From IMG/VR virus record IMGVR_UViG_2703718853_000004: a DNA stretch of 42,889 bases. One strand, given 5' to 3'. The notes beneath the pieces were generated by a model. That model saw only the letters and a program-made list of their open reading frames with translations, made no database searches and was not told the origin of the DNA. The stretch is from a virus. Lineage: Duplodnaviria > Heunggongvirae > Uroviricota > Caudoviricetes. The translations under genes and the position numbers were made by a program. Every line of letters starts with the position of its first letter. The stretch's first letter is position 1. Of this stretch, positions 1-42,889 are shown in pieces.

Positions 1-105
1 ATGATTTACATCGGTCTACCGCAATGGTCGCATCCTAAATGGGTGCGGTTGGGGATCACCAGCCTTGAAGAGTATGCCCGCCACTTTAACTGCGTGACGC
101 GGTAA
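1..105 (+). pseudogene. 5' fragment of a DUF72-family (YecE-like) host gene, truncated after 34 codons
   Basis: ATG at position 1; translation MIYIGLPQWSHPKWVRLGITSLEEYARHFNCVTR then stop. DUF72 proteins are normally ~270 aa, so this reads as a gene interrupted at the prophage boundary. Confidence 0.4.
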
Positions 106-192
106 ATTTAAAAATCGACAAATATCGTCCAGGAGCGCCATTTTTAATGGCTGGAGATAGCATCCAACATACGTTGTTTGCAATGTTTGGCG

Positions 193-228
193 AAATTCAC
201 TGATTTCTCATGCCCCACCCATGCCCCA
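193..228. repeat. Left copy of imperfect direct repeat containing tandem ATGCCCCA motifs (candidate integrase arm-type site)
   Basis: TGCCCCACCCATGCCCCA at 211..228 matches TGCCCCATCCATGCCCCA at 42852..42869 with one mismatch; weaker upstream similarity (GAAATT...TGCCCCA). Confidence 0.4.
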
Positions 229-268: not shown

Positions 269-586
269 CTAAACAACCGCATTGTCCTGGCGCACATCGC
301 AGATAGTAAACGTCACTACACCGATGACAGTAACATCGTCCAGGGCCTCGCCCTCGATCGCTTCACCATCTTCGGTAATCAGCGACCTTCCTCTCAGCGT
401 GGCAAGCTCCGTCCCGCCGCCGTGCTGGATCAGAACCTGACTGGCCTGCTTTGGTTTCAGGGAGACATCCAGCACAACGTAACCGCCAGATTGCTCGAAG
501 AGGCGCGTATTTGGACCGACATTGCAGATCGAGTTAACCGTTAATCGCTGTTCCGTGTAATCCGTCGCGGGTGATGGAAAGCCCAT
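269..586 (-). CDS. Hypothetical cargo protein (105 aa) at the prophage left end
   Basis: ORF 269..619; ATG at 586 is preceded by GGGGAGGA at SD spacing, while the GTG at 619 has no SD. No recognisable motif. Confidence 0.4.
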   Translation of the reverse strand: MGFPSPATDYTEQRLTVNSICNVGPNTRLFEQSGGYVVLDVSLKPKQASQVLIQHGGGTELATLRGRSLITEDGEAIEGEALDDVTVIGVVTFTICDVRQDNAVV

Positions 587-699
587 TACAGAATCCTCCC
601 CATGTTGGCCATCATCCACAGGCGGTTTTCACTATGCTCTGCCGTTTTGTCGAAAATTATCAATACGTTACTCCCTGACATTTATTTTCGGTCGGTTAT

Positions 700-887: not shown

Positions 888-2972
888 CTACATTGAGGGC
901 AACATTGATACATTAACGGTTCTTTCCAGACCATCAACATTTGTCAACTGAACAGTAACCAGACCGGTTGAGCTGTTAATGGACAATGATACCGTTACGC
1001 CAGTCCCTGAAAGCCCAATGCGTGCAGAGCTGGCAACAATTCCCGAGGTCAGGATATCCAGATAATAAAGATTCTCCCTTCTGAATCTGACGGGAATTTT
1101 AATATCGTCACCAAATGACTGGCTACCAATTCGACATTCAATTAGGATTGAACGGGTAATATATGTATCGAAAGAATTCTGGAATATGTTGGTCTTGGTC
1201 AGCGATAACGTTGCGCCCGCAGAGCCTGCTAACGTACCTGATGACTGTGAACCAATAATTCGCCTGCCTTTAACAACCTGGGTCATACCAATATTTACAT
1301 CGTCGTCCATACCAAGGTTGCCGGTTATCGACTTATTTAACGTGGTCGCCTTCTGGTTAATTGCTGAAGTAACAAAACCAGTCATGTCACTTCCGGAAAC
1401 CTGCAAGGTCCCCCCGCCAGAGCCAAGAGCCGATACGTTGTAGGATGGCGAGATTGTCCCTCCGTCACCGCTGTCATTCGCACCGACACCAGTTCTTACC
1501 CCTGAGAGTTCAATTTTACCGTCATCAATAATAATAAAGTTTGCGGAATAGTCATTACCCACGGGTTGATTAGCACCACTGCGCCGGACGTTAACGCCGT
1601 TTAAAATCCATGAGGATTTCGCCCCGGCGACCACACCTCCCCTTCCGGCCCTGTCGCACAGTTCGCCGAAAATCTGGTTCTCCACCGACTGGTACGCATA
1701 CCAGTTATCGCCGGTGTTCCATTCGTTCCGGCATCCTCCAAAAAAGTTATTGTTTGCCCCACCGGTAAGGGCCACTCCTCGATCATTAGCATTGATTGTG
1801 CAACCAAACATCATGGAGTCTATTAAATTCCTGACTCCATCCCCGTTTCCGGATATTGAGCAGAAATATGCTTTCATTGTTCCGATGTACCTGGCTGTTC
1901 CTCCTGAAGCCCAGCCAATCCCGATCGCAAACCGATAAAATCCGCACCCCTCAAGTCGGGTGCCGTTGAACTGGGTTGCAGTATTTGGCGAATAAAAAAG
2001 GTACGTTGTTTTATCTCGGCCATCAAAAACAATATCCCGGAATACATGCCTGCCTGTTGAATAAAATGGAAAACTTGCACCAGCTGCTACGCGGATGACG
2101 ACTCCGCAATTCAGAAAACTGTTATCGTCATCAATTGTATATGGGCGTCGGCAACCCCACCCTATAAATTGAAAACCTAATGGAAGCATTGCGGGGTCAA
2201 GCCCGAAATTTAACGCACCGACATTCCACGGAATATCCAGTACCATCACTCCATCAGCTATAGCTTTTTTTAACGCGTAGTCAGCGATAACATTAACGCC
2301 AGGAATTGTGAGCAACGCCTGCTGATCAGCTTCAGTAAGGTATTCAAAAATCGAGGAGCGAATGATTCTGGCCAGAGGTGAGGCGTTCCGGTAAACCTTC
2401 ATTGCTCCTTCGCCTGAACCCAGGTCTTGGCGAAGCGTATCACCATCCATCAGAACGAAGTGAGTAACGTCGTTCGCAAAGCTGGTCGCATCGGTTCCGG
2501 TGGTCGTAAAGCCGACGTCAGTAGCAGCATTCAGGCGGTAATACTCATTGTCGTAACGGATGTACTGGTTACGGGCACTAAACTGGAATGGGCCGTCCTG
2601 ATAATCGCCAAGGAACACGTATCCTGAAGTATTCAGGAACTGCTGAAAGCGGTTTTCTTTATCAGATTGAGATTCTGAAAATGTTGATTCCTGCGCCGAT
2701 AACTGAGAGGAGAAGCGCGATTCAAATTCATTTGATTTTTCTTCGAAAGAGGATTCCCTTTCGGATTGAGATAATTCAAAGGTATCTTGTTGTTCATTAA
2801 GTTGGTTATCAGACTTTACATTGATGCCATGCAGAGTGTCTAACTGCTTACCTGTACGCGTGGTAATAGTTTCATCACTACTATTAGCGAACCTGTCAAT
2901 AGACTGCATATTATCCCATGCATCAGGTATTGATGCAGACGGCACAGGATTGCCGGTATCGTATTCACTCAT
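888..2972 (-). CDS. Tailspike / tail fiber protein with putative beta-helix domain (possible polysaccharide depolymerase)
   Basis: 694 aa; conserved-looking N-terminal anchor region; Gly/Asn/Thr/Ser-rich repetitive central and C-terminal region typical of receptor-binding beta-helix proteins; last gene of the tail module. Confidence 0.7.
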   Translation of the reverse strand: MSEYDTGNPVPSASIPDAWDNMQSIDRFANSSDETITTRTGKQLDTLHGINVKSDNQLNEQQDTFELSQSERESSFEEKSNEFESRFSSQLSAQESTFSESQSDKENRFQQFLNTSGYVFLGDYQDGPFQFSARNQYIRYDNEYYRLNAATDVGFTTTGTDATSFANDVTHFVLMDGDTLRQDLGSGEGAMKVYRNASPLARIIRSSIFEYLTEADQQALLTIPGVNVIADYALKKAIADGVMVLDIPWNVGALNFGLDPAMLPLGFQFIGWGCRRPYTIDDDNSFLNCGVVIRVAAGASFPFYSTGRHVFRDIVFDGRDKTTYLFYSPNTATQFNGTRLEGCGFYRFAIGIGWASGGTARYIGTMKAYFCSISGNGDGVRNLIDSMMFGCTINANDRGVALTGGANNNFFGGCRNEWNTGDNWYAYQSVENQIFGELCDRAGRGGVVAGAKSSWILNGVNVRRSGANQPVGNDYSANFIIIDDGKIELSGVRTGVGANDSGDGGTISPSYNVSALGSGGGTLQVSGSDMTGFVTSAINQKATTLNKSITGNLGMDDDVNIGMTQVVKGRRIIGSQSSGTLAGSAGATLSLTKTNIFQNSFDTYITRSILIECRIGSQSFGDDIKIPVRFRRENLYYLDILTSGIVASSARIGLSGTGVTVSLSINSSTGLVTVQLTNVDGLERTVNVSMLPSM

Positions 2973-21851: not shown

Positions 21852-23252
21852 TTAGCTGTTTCCCAGCGCTTCCCAGATATCCATTGCCGTATCGGTTGGA
21901 GCAAACGCCATGATGAACGCGTCGGCCACGTTCGGCGATGGTACGTCACGCTTGGCGAGGTCTTTCTTGCTTTCCACCATCACGCGACCGTTTTTGTCAA
22001 AATCACGGTGCGGGGTGGTAAGTTCCAGCTTGAGCTTTTCCAGCAGCGGACAAGATGAGTCGATGCTTATCAGCTCATCTACCGGGTACTGCTCGCCGTT
22101 CTTTACCGCGTTGAAGGTGTTACGGAAGCGATCCGCCACCAGCCACCAGGCTTGCGCTTTGAGGTTGGCGAAAAAATCCTTGTTCGGGATGCCAATATAT
22201 TCGTAGTCCGGCTCATTCACACCAGCGCCAGCATTGAATCGCTGATAATTGATGCGGGATGCATTCATGTTTTCGCGCTTACGATCCTCATTAATTTCTG
22301 AGAATTTCGCGCCAGCAGATGCCCCAACGCCGATTGAGTCGTAGACAATATCAGCATCACGCTCCAGTGCCGCCTGATACGTACGCTGGCAGCTCTTCAG
22401 CAATTCGTCTTCTTTCGCCTTCCACTCATCCGCCCAATACACGACGGAGCCGTGACGATAGACGTTAGCGCACTTATCGGCGCCGCTATCAGCAACGTCG
22501 AAGCCAATACGCTTGCGCCCGCTCGGCTCGAAATTAAGGACTTTATGGGCATCAACGGCCGCCTCAATCCATGACAGCTTGATAATGGCCGCATCATCAT
22601 CCGACTCTGGCACGCCTTCGTAGACATGCTTAAACCCATCCGGATCCCGGCGTTTAGCGGCGTCGATAACCTTCAGCATGGTGTCGGACAAAAAGGGGTT
22701 TTCATCGTAGTTGATTTTGCGTATCAGCGTATCTTCTGGCGGATCGACCACAAAGTTACGCCACACGAAATCAGTCACCAGCCCGGGGTTAAAGATAAAC
22801 CAGCACTCTGATCCCTCTTTACGGATGGTTGGCTCCAGTATCTTCCACTGGTATTCCGTCAGCGCGTGGGCCTCTTCAAGCCACAGAACGCTGATACCCT
22901 CCAGAGACTTAATCTCTTCAATGTTGCGCCAGAGCCCATAAAAGACGAATTCAGACCCGGTCACCCGGTTAATGATTTTGTTGTTCAGAATGCGGAAACG
23001 ATGCCGCAGGCCAAAGCGGTCAATCTGAATTTTGAGCAGGGTATATACCGACTCTTCAATTTTGTTCTGGATCTGACGTGCACAGCAAAAGCGCAGGCTG
23101 TATTTATTCGACAGAAATATGGCTATGCCAGCGGCATCCCACGATTTTGACGATGACCGGCCACCATAAAGCACTTTGTTACGCGCCTGCGTCGTCCAGA
23201 AGCTACGCAGGACCGGATTCAGCGTCGGTTTGGATGTCAGAGTAGAAGTCAT
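21852..23252 (-). CDS. Terminase large subunit
   Basis: Start set at MTSTLTSKP (GGAGAG SD upstream); ATPase-like N-terminal region (GGRSSSKSWD, WLEEAH) and acidic nuclease-like C-terminal region; follows terS. Confidence 0.8.
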   Translation of the reverse strand: MTSTLTSKPTLNPVLRSFWTTQARNKVLYGGRSSSKSWDAAGIAIFLSNKYSLRFCCARQIQNKIEESVYTLLKIQIDRFGLRHRFRILNNKIINRVTGSEFVFYGLWRNIEEIKSLEGISVLWLEEAHALTEYQWKILEPTIRKEGSECWFIFNPGLVTDFVWRNFVVDPPEDTLIRKINYDENPFLSDTMLKVIDAAKRRDPDGFKHVYEGVPESDDDAAIIKLSWIEAAVDAHKVLNFEPSGRKRIGFDVADSGADKCANVYRHGSVVYWADEWKAKEDELLKSCQRTYQAALERDADIVYDSIGVGASAGAKFSEINEDRKRENMNASRINYQRFNAGAGVNEPDYEYIGIPNKDFFANLKAQAWWLVADRFRNTFNAVKNGEQYPVDELISIDSSCPLLEKLKLELTTPHRDFDKNGRVMVESKKDLAKRDVPSPNVADAFIMAFAPTDTAMDIWEALGNS

Positions 23253-41341: not shown

Positions 41342-41587
41342 ATGCAGACAATAATCCAGATCGAGCCAAACGAATGGGTTTCAGAGGACTTGCTGATGGC
41401 AGTCACAGGTATGAAGCGCGGTACCATTACACGGGCCCGCAAATCATCCTGGCTGCTTGGGCGTGAGTATAAGCACGTTTCCCCTGAAGGTGACCCAAAG
41501 CCAACCAGCGAATGCATGTACAACCGCAAAGCGGTAGACGCATGGATTCAGGCTCAAAAGCAACCATTGGGTGATCGGGCGGTATGA
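41342..41587 (+). CDS. Excisionase-like DNA-binding protein
   Basis: 81 aa ORF immediately upstream of the integrase gene. Confidence 0.5.
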   Translation: MQTIIQIEPNEWVSEDLLMAVTGMKRGTITRARKSSWLLGREYKHVSPEGDPKPTSECMYNRKAVDAWIQAQKQPLGDRAV

Positions 41588-41629: not shown

Positions 41630-42889
41630 ATGAGTAAAGAATCATACCCAACGGGCGTTGAGAACCACGGAAAATCACTCCGCATATGGTTCATTTTTAA
41701 AGGCAAGCGTGTCAGGGAAAATCTCGGTGTCCCTGACACCGCTAAAAACAGGAAGGTGGCCGGGGAACTGCGAACGTCAGTTTGTTTCGCTATCCGCATG
41801 GGGACCTTTGACTATGCTGCGCAATTCCCCAATTCGCCAAACCTGAAAACTTTCGGCATCTGCAAGAAAGAGATCACCGTGAAATTTCTGTCTGAAAAAT
41901 GGCTGGAGCTGAAACGGATGGAGATCTGCGCTAATGCCATAAACCGGTATGAATCGGTTGTCAGAAGCATGCTGCCGAGGATCGGCGCGAAAAAGCTGGT
42001 TTCGTGTGTGACAAGGGAAGAACTGCTGTATATCAGGAAGGATATGCTGTCGGGGGAGAAAGGGTTGAGCGTGGTAACGGTAAACTACTACATGTCCACG
42101 ATAGCGGGGATGTTTCAGTTTGCTGTTGATAATGGCTATGTGAGTGAAAACCCGTTTAACGGCATCAAGCCGCTAAAGAGGGCCAGGATAGAACCAGATC
42201 CGCTCACACGTGATGAATTCGTTCGCTTCATTGATGCCTGCAAGCATCAGCAAACGAAAAACCTGTGGTCAATTGCGGTATACACAGGATTACGTCACGG
42301 TGAGCTGGTCTCCCTCGCATGGGAAGATATAGATCTGAAAGCTGGAACGATGACCATACGCCGGAATTATACGAAACTCGGTGATTTCACTCTACCAAAA
42401 ACCGAAGCTGGTACCGACAGGGTCGTGCACCTGATCAAGCCTGCCATCGACGCTTTGAGGAACCAGGCAGAAATGACCAGGCTGGGAAGGCAGTATCAGA
42501 TTGAGGTGGCATTGCGGGAGTATGGCCGAACGGTTATTCACGACTGTACATTTGTGTTCAATCCTCAGTTGGTTAAAAAAAGTGGCAGCGTGGGTTACCT
42601 GTACAAAGCCGATTCAGTGGGTGACTCATGGGATGCGGCGCTTAAACGGTCAGGTTTAAGGCACCGGAAGGCGTATCAGTCGAGACACACTTACGCCTGC
42701 TGGTCGCTGTCTGCCGGGGCCAATCCGAGTTTCATTGCCAGCCAGATGGGACACGCCAGCGCCCAGATGGTTTTCAATGTTTACGGCGCCTGGATGGCCG
42801 ACAGCAGCAGCGATCAGATTGCCATGTTGAACCAGAAATTATCGGACTTTGCCCCATCCATGCCCCATGGCATGGTGATAGGAATATGA
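41630..42889 (+). CDS. int: Tyrosine integrase (phage integrase family)
   Basis: 419 aa; C-terminal catalytic-domain features (TGLRHGEL, HxxR-like SRHTYAC, terminal Tyr region); last gene at the prophage end, downstream of the excisionase-like gene. Confidence 0.85.
   Translation: MSKESYPTGVENHGKSLRIWFIFKGKRVRENLGVPDTAKNRKVAGELRTSVCFAIRMGTFDYAAQFPNSPNLKTFGICKKEITVKFLSEKWLELKRMEICANAINRYESVVRSMLPRIGAKKLVSCVTREELLYIRKDMLSGEKGLSVVTVNYYMSTIAGMFQFAVDNGYVSENPFNGIKPLKRARIEPDPLTRDEFVRFIDACKHQQTKNLWSIAVYTGLRHGELVSLAWEDIDLKAGTMTIRRNYTKLGDFTLPKTEAGTDRVVHLIKPAIDALRNQAEMTRLGRQYQIEVALREYGRTVIHDCTFVFNPQLVKKSGSVGYLYKADSVGDSWDAALKRSGLRHRKAYQSRHTYACWSLSAGANPSFIASQMGHASAQMVFNVYGAWMADSSSDQIAMLNQKLSDFAPSMPHGMVIGI
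42836..42869. repeat. Right copy of imperfect direct repeat with tandem ATGCCCCA motifs, inside the int 3' end
   Basis: TGCCCCATCCATGCCCCA at 42852..42869 versus 211..228. Confidence 0.4.

Follow-up and report, generated by a model that had tools for sequence, protein, structure and literature searches.

The prophage considered here carries an 18-bp tandem repeat near both of its ends, one copy lying in non-coding DNA and the other within the 3' end of the integrase gene (int). This raises the question of whether the repeats are arm-type binding sites of the integrase, placed on either side of the attachment site, or part of the att core that is duplicated upon integration; the original prediction had left room for both. 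They were analysed in the window, i.e., the whole stretch of viral DNA under study (IMG/VR record IMGVR_UViG_2703718853_000004, 42,889 nucleotides), and the DNA beyond its right end was taken from the same prophage in E. coli ST361 (NZ_CP103704.1). The features on which the argument draws are the following.

1..96, plus strand: 5' fragment of the host gene yecE (DUF72), interrupted by the prophage; its translation reads MIYIGLPQWSHPKWVRLGITSLEEYARHFNCV and then diverges
74..96, plus strand: attL copy of the 23-bp att core ATGCCCGCCACTTTAACTGCGTG; the same 23 bp recur at positions 2121-2143 of locus L001, 31 bp past the window end (attR)
110..139, plus strand: conserved block aaaaATCGACaaatATCGTCcaggagcgcc of the distal arm, adjoining the core; possible excisionase or bending-protein site
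211..217 and 222..228, plus strand: two TGCCCCA units, candidate distal-arm pair of arm-type units; non-coding, starting 114 bp past the core
41342..41587, plus strand: excisionase gene (DUF1233; Pfam PF06806, E 2.8e-34), called excisionase in RefSeq and in phage records
41630..42889, plus strand: tyrosine integrase gene int (Pfam Arm-DNA-bind_2 PF12167 and Phage_integrase PF00589)
42850..42856 and 42861..42867, plus strand: two TGCCCCA units, candidate int-proximal pair of arm-type units; in the 3' coding end of int (F-A-P-S-M-P-H), ending 53 bp before the core

Make-up and position of the repeats

The left repeat, TGCCCCACCCATGCCCCA, occupies 211..228 and the right repeat, TGCCCCATCCATGCCCCA, occupies 42850..42867, with one base different between the two copies. 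The left place and the single mismatch were as originally predicted, whereas the right copy had been put 2 bp off, at 42852..42869; it does lie inside the 3' end of the int coding sequence, as had been claimed, 22 bp ahead of the stop codon. Each copy is composed of two 7-bp units TGCCCCA, 11 bp apart from start to start. Single TG(C/T)CCCA heptamers are found in the window at chance frequency (14 observed vs. 11.9 expected). The tandem pattern TGYCCCA-N4-TGYCCCA, allowing up to one mismatch, occurs twice, as the two repeats only, vs. 0.07 expected, a count that none of 100 shuffles reached. A search for more copies of the unit, which had been proposed, indeed returned ATGCCCCA at 22319 and 26514; both were rejected as further sites, being single units at chance frequency with no tandem partner, and the window holds no further tandem pair. 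Another candidate, a third and inverted arm site at 42747..42753 (TGTCCCA, minus strand, within int and 103 bp upstream of the proximal pair), was rejected as well. This inverted heptamer is present in 9 of the 14 phages compared below, and it is probably a coding by-product, because it coincides with the M-G-H codons of a conserved recombinase box and because the Gly codon within it is free to vary (GGC in five, GGA in three, and GGG in three).

Weaker similarity extending upstream of the repeats had also been proposed, which held only in part. Over the 40 bp upstream of the two copies in the window, it was marginal (local alignment, p about 0.03), and it fell below p = 0.05 in just one of 13 related phages (IdasGreatGrand, p = 0.046). 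When 40 bp on the upstream side of the pairs and 25 bp on the downstream side were aligned locally, most of the alignments did not surpass those of shuffled sequence. What the copies share is therefore essentially limited to the 18 bp of the pair.

The att core was located by means of the host gene. The yecE fragment is annotated in RefSeq as a partial CDS adjoining yecD, and the right junction reads, in order, the int stop, a 31-bp phage spacer, the core ATGCCCGCCACTTTAACTGCGTG, and the remainder of yecE. When positions 1..96 of the window were joined to the flank that follows this second core copy, an uninterrupted yecE was restored in one piece with 100% identity, among the E. coli matches listed, and at least 80% of the rejoined empty site was covered in one place in 4903 genomes. 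Since the rejoined flanks restore an uninterrupted yecE, the att core is the 23-bp yecE segment, and the repeats lie outside it. Comparison with the empty yecE locus and with the sequence past 42889, both put forward in the original prediction, thus defined the core and dismissed the alternative whereby the repeats are part of the duplication made by integration. Their location near both prophage ends was in line with that alternative. However, it is the yecE sequence that is found twice, first at 74..96 and then 31 bp past the end of the window, while the empty site, contiguous over the junction in the matches listed, holds the core only, without any TGCCCCA pair. The pairs belong to the phage DNA, inward of each junction, and the right one is part of int and thus on the phage side of attR; they are not, as an att core is, common to attB and both junctions. 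We consequently discard this explanation altogether.

Read around the phage circle, the int-end pair is followed after 53 bp by the core and, 114 bp further on, by the distal pair; both pairs have the same orientation, and their starts are 207 bp apart. This agrees with the expectation that the repeats would be a few hundred bp apart in the circle and flank attP, with one pair in each arm.

Two observations were made in passing on the DNA around the junctions. In the lysogen, a new yecE frame begins at an ATG that overlaps the int stop (ATGA), from 42886..42889 of the window onward (L001 2087..2866), and continues in frame across the 31 bp of phage spacer, then the core, and on to the remaining part of yecE (MRMIKISKLARH-ARHFNCVEGN...). 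RefSeq annotates this frame as a 259-aa yecE, and in its predicted product the first 27 YecE residues are exchanged for 14 phage-encoded residues. Beside the distal arm lies an open reading frame on the minus strand (269..619, 116 aa) that RefSeq labels an S24/S26 family peptidase and that has no Pfam match; it resembles a truncated UmuD/LexA-like gene, and a UmuD gene lies nearby in Klebsiella phage RothC.

Conservation among related phages and within int

Attachment sites were compared in a set of 14 phages whose Int proteins are 52-97% identical to that of the window. For ten of them, the attP was intact in the phage genome record; the other four attPs (this window, Stx1_14040, P27, and a Yersinia phage) were joined from the two ends of a prophage or record. 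At least six unrelated cores are represented, i.e., yecE, a second site (KPP5665-2 and RCIP0034), and the cores of phi330, of phi315, of IdasGreatGrand together with CobraSix, and of SaltyDalty. The tandem TG(C/T)CCCA-N4-TG(C/T)CCCA was found both in the int 3' end and in the distal arm, in the same orientation, in all 14 phages, with extra distal units in some of them (two distal pairs in CharmingMan, P27, and phi315, and three units in phi330). TG(C/T)CCCA was moreover the sole 7-mer common to both arms throughout the set, and in the multiple alignment the distal pair formed invariant columns amid about 60 bp of poorly conserved sequence. The motif is thus conserved across integrases with different cores, and more so than the arm DNA that surrounds it.

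Spacing was conserved as well. The distance from pair to pair was 203-211 bp in 13 of the 14 phages, while the int stop was located anywhere between 22 and 63 bp from the pair. The outlier was phi330, with 226 bp between the pairs, which corresponds to 207 bp plus a 19-bp tandem duplication of the core; in its attP (L010, about 2135..2175), the 19-bp core cctgtcacgttacgcgcgtg is indeed present twice in tandem. The TGTCCCA variant was observed in both arms of Stx1_14040, phi330, and P27 and in a single arm of CharmingMan and the Yersinia phage. Strict covariation of the C/T variant from arm to arm was accordingly rejected; it is partial only and is not the main evidence.

The same layout was found in uncut molecules. 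Klebsiella phage RothC, whose Int is 96.9% identical, has int in the middle of its record and an intact attP in one molecule, with the int stop, 31 bp, the core (one mismatch), about 114 bp, and then aATGCCCCATCCATGCCCCAtc; its similarity to the window stops directly after the distal pair. Among related integrase loci of IMG/VR, the int 3' pair was present in 80 out of 80. Downstream sequence was obtained from nine of these 80, most contigs ending at the int stop, and comprised two intact attPs (contigs L025 and L053, both with the 207-bp spacing), six attR junctions (five in yecE and one in another gene), and one deletion. In the latter contig (L039, IMGVR_UViG_3300045988_080850, 1921..1972), the int 3' end is fused via the 18-bp repeat to the flank of the distal arm, so that Int ends in ...DFAPPMPQDACHAKSSIN and 207 bp are removed, including the IHF-like site, the core, and the conserved block. 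The contig may show a true deletion mediated by the repeat, which would leave the phage devoid of attP, or else an artefact of assembly. A side possibility is that the 18-bp direct repeats occasionally recombine, delete the core, and yield non-integrating phages.

Within int, the constraint was visible at the level of codons. The two units are read in different frames, as xxT-G(C/T)C-CCA and then nTG-(C/T)CC-CAn, and the same heptamer codes for (x)-A/V-P in unit 1 and for M/L/V-P/S-H/Q in unit 2. The residue before unit 1 (codon 407) varies between F, S, R, Y, and N with a third base that is always T, and the spacer codon between the units is freely variable (S, Q, C, D, Y, M, and P). In 11 non-redundant integrases, the columns with an invariant amino acid having at least four synonymous codons (n = 91) were examined: 90 of them use two to six codons, and the single frozen one is the CCA of Pro409, in unit 1. 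The proline codon of unit 2 was CCC in 10 out of 10, P27 having instead Ser TCC, which yields TGTCCCA. As the units are frame-shifted, as neighboring residues vary with bases fixed, and as the sole frozen codon is that of Pro409, selection on the int 3' end acts on DNA and not on the peptide alone. Some of the conservation inside int could nevertheless reflect a protein role of the Int C-terminal tail.

Candidate arm-type sites and the proteins that may bind them

Int has the domains that such sites would call for. Its N-terminal arm DNA-binding domain (residues 7-70, nucleotides 41648..41839) matches PF12167, formerly DUF3596, over the full profile (1-65 of 65, 84.4 bits vs. a cut-off of 22, E 5e-24). 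Pfam also recognises the catalytic domain, as in a heterobivalent integrase, and the PF12167 match is the one expected of the IntBPP-1 subgroup (Smyshlyaev et al., 2021). DUF3596 integrases constitute this subgroup of arm-binding-domain recombinases, of which the Stx2a phage integrases are named members (PMC8138268). The closest solved structures by sequence are the core-binding and catalytic regions of Tn1549 Int and lambda Int, and none of them spans the present arm-binding domain. The best match is Tn1549 Int (6en0, E 7e-9), which belongs to the neighboring subgroup and has the beta-stranded insertion between catalytic strands 2 and 3 by which IntBPP-1 integrases are also characterised (PMC8138268). 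The excisionase gene accompanies int in every phage examined.

The 18-bp elements are thus very probably arm-type binding sites of this heterobivalent tyrosine integrase, as the original prediction had proposed. In favor of this reading, a repeated motif unlike the core and absent from the empty yecE site is found outside the core in both arms, ordered as in RothC; it is maintained next to different cores, its codons are frozen within int, and Int possesses an arm-binding domain. The position, conservation, spacing, and codon constraint of the units and the presence of this domain are established. No published description of arm sites was found for this family; that Int is the protein bound is accordingly inferred, as are the roles of IHF and Xis and the stoichiometry.

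From a mechanistic point of view, pair 1 in the int 3' end would be followed in the circle by an IHF-like site, then by the 23-bp core and the conserved block, and lastly by pair 2. The 11-bp phasing is close to one helical turn, so that two Int N-terminal domains could be neighbors on the same face of the helix. The C-terminal domains of Int would bind and cut at the yecE-matching core, while the N-terminal domains would hold the arm pairs, and, as in lambda, bending proteins would fold back the arms. With two units on each side, every protomer of an Int tetramer could be engaged. Integration would leave pair 2 in attL, at the left of the window, and pair 1 in attR, at its right, and excision would need both pairs again plus the DUF1233 excisionase.

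Elements that may serve accessory proteins were found between the pairs. The stretch that separates pair 1 from the core includes AATCAGCAAGTTA, an exact match to the IHF consensus situated 11 bp past the int stop. The strict consensus (WATCARNNNNTTR) is present in five of the 14 phages, including this one, and a looser [AGT]TCA-N4-5-(G/T)TTA-like element in most of the others. On the other side of the core, nine of the 14 attPs have the block at 110..139 in near-identical form, and four more have it with several substitutions but still recognisable, whatever the core; in the alignment of 14, it is absent from the reconstructed attP of the Yersinia phage. It may be a site for the DUF1233 excisionase or for a DNA-bending protein. 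The block also contains a 10-bp-phased direct repeat, ATCGAC/ATCGTC.

Could the repeats bind another component of recombination, i.e., the DUF1233 excisionase or a host nucleoid protein, and not Int? Their position in the att arms and their family-wide conservation would fit equally well, and an excisionase gene is found along with int in every phage examined. It is characteristic of excisionases, however, that they act close to the core and on a single arm, whereas the motif is the same in both arms, and the core-proximal place is already taken by the conserved block at 110..139. The dedicated arm-binding domain of Int would, in addition, be left without a target. Moreover, phiCTX keeps the same two-arm layout with a related Int and no identified Cox/Apl-type excisionase (PMC3448106). 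Binding of the repeats by such a protein, in place of Int, consequently appears unlikely.

The left copy could also be a functionless relic, in the process of decay, of a duplicated or foreign int 3' end, left by an earlier tandem prophage or by module exchange. Read in the int frame, this copy and its right flank indeed give ...APPMPQDACHAKSSIN*, which resembles an integrase tail, contig L039 displays exactly such a fusion, and the marginal upstream similarity in the window points the same way. A relic would be expected to decay, yet 18 bp are kept in 14 phages at about 207 bp from the proximal pair while the flanks in the distal arm have diverged; flank similarity is generally absent, and no second core copy follows the left element. 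A relic is thus very unlikely. Slightly less credible still is the explanation that conservation results from protein-level selection on the Int tail (A-P-x-M-P-H) only, the left copy being a chance match. The peptide F/x-A/V-P-x-M/L/V-P-H/Q is indeed conserved in the family. This explanation is nonetheless strongly disfavored by identical DNA units coding for different peptides in different frames, by the constant third base of codon 407 under a variable amino acid, by Pro409 as the sole frozen codon among the invariant columns, and by a tandem pattern which, expected at 0.07 per window, stands at the matching non-coding place of the arm in every phage of the set.

Arm-type sites such as those proposed here are commonplace in lambda-like integration, though they seem not to have been described for this integrase family, to which several Shiga-toxin phages belong. 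The feature belongs in textbooks and brings nothing conceptually new; only att cores are reported for the family in the searchable literature, in which we found no published account of arm sites (yecE, Stx, 933W, P27, DUF3596, phiCTX), although an older mention (phiCTX, phi297, or the original P27 paper) may exist. This family mobilises phiP27 and many Stx1 and Stx2 prophages at yecE, and close relatives appear to serve prophages of the yehV/mlrA and wrbA types. The repeats offer a sequence rule to delimit functional attP, attL, and attR in such prophages, to spot prophages locked in by the loss of an arm, and to design minimal att substrates for these integrases. They also provide a clean example of a predicted protein-binding site that constrains both the synonymous sites and the C-terminal peptide of its binder's own gene.

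Comparison with known attachment systems

In lambda, the arm-type sites P1, P2, and P'1-P'3 of attP are bound by the N-terminal domain of Int. This arm-site architecture served as the model for the mechanism outlined above (PMC4880445). The present prophage resembles lambda in several respects: its integrase is heterobivalent, with an arm-binding domain at the N terminus; both arms contain short repeated sites unlike the core; the units in the int-proximal arm are in tandem, with a periodicity of about 10-11 bp; a candidate IHF site lies between the arm sites and the core; and int adjoins attP, with xis upstream. The prophage differs by its motif, TG(C/T)CCCA instead of C/AAGTCACTAT, by an arm domain of the Pfam family Arm-DNA-bind_2 (PF12167), that of lambda belonging to another family, by two plus two units in one orientation where lambda has five with one inverted, and by a proximal pair located inside the int coding sequence.

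P2 and 186 have the same architecture and likewise served as a model for the mechanism: their attP bears a pair of direct repeats in either arm, and these are binding sites for the N-terminal domain of Int (PMC3448106). The match in layout with lambda, P2, and 186 speaks in favor of arm-type sites. The present attP likewise has at least two tandem direct repeats per arm, flanking a core identical to attB. By contrast, the consensus is tgTGGaCa in P2 and tgccGCCActt in 186, and the Int studied here, of about 420 aa, has a DUF3596-type arm domain and is accompanied by a separate DUF1233 excisionase rather than by Cox or Apl.

The yecE-integrating Stx phages and phiP27, for which an att core of 21 bp or 11 bp is reported, have integrases of the family found in this prophage (Int 76-78% identical), insert into yecE as it does, and differ little from it in the core; unlike the window, they carry TGTCCCA as the first unit. 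The paper on yecE Stx phages defines the att core only (PMC8112680), and the GenBank records of the Stx phages and of P27 are likewise limited to the core in their att annotations, with no mention of arm repeats.

A more distant counterpart is the Pseudomonas phage phiCTX, whose Int is 31% identical. In an unbiased repeat search, the top family of direct repeats was GTTCCCAGTTTGTTCCCA on the int-proximal side of its annotated attP core and GTTCCCAGAGTGTTCCCA on the distal side. These contain a tandem pair GTTCCCA-N4-GTTCCCA in each arm, phased by 11 bp and in the same orientation, flanking the annotated 30-bp core, and the units share the YCCCA end with those described here. In record D13409.1 (L099 1664..1692 and 1837..1854), the GTTCCCA pairs on both sides of the core are arm-type-like and are joined by a weak third unit on the int side. 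The differences concern the distance between pairs (173 bp vs. 207 bp here), the proximal pair, which follows the int stop and a terminator and is not in the open reading frame, and the target, a tRNA gene and not yecE. Because phiCTX, with so distant an Int, has the same phasing and orientation, the architecture and the YCCCA end reach well beyond the close family.

We lean slightly toward a broader proposal, in which TG(C/T)CCCA (GTTCCCA in phiCTX) would be the general arm-site code of the whole DUF3596/IntBPP-1 subgroup (phiP27, the yecE-, yehV-, and wrbA-type Stx integrases, and phiCTX). In its minimal form, this code would consist of two plus two units at a fixed distance of about 207 bp, tethering four protomers, with the proximal pair in the Int C-terminal tail, read in two frames. 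Were this so, the attP boundaries of Stx and related prophages would be predictable from sequence alone, and the family would offer structural work a simpler intasome than that of lambda.
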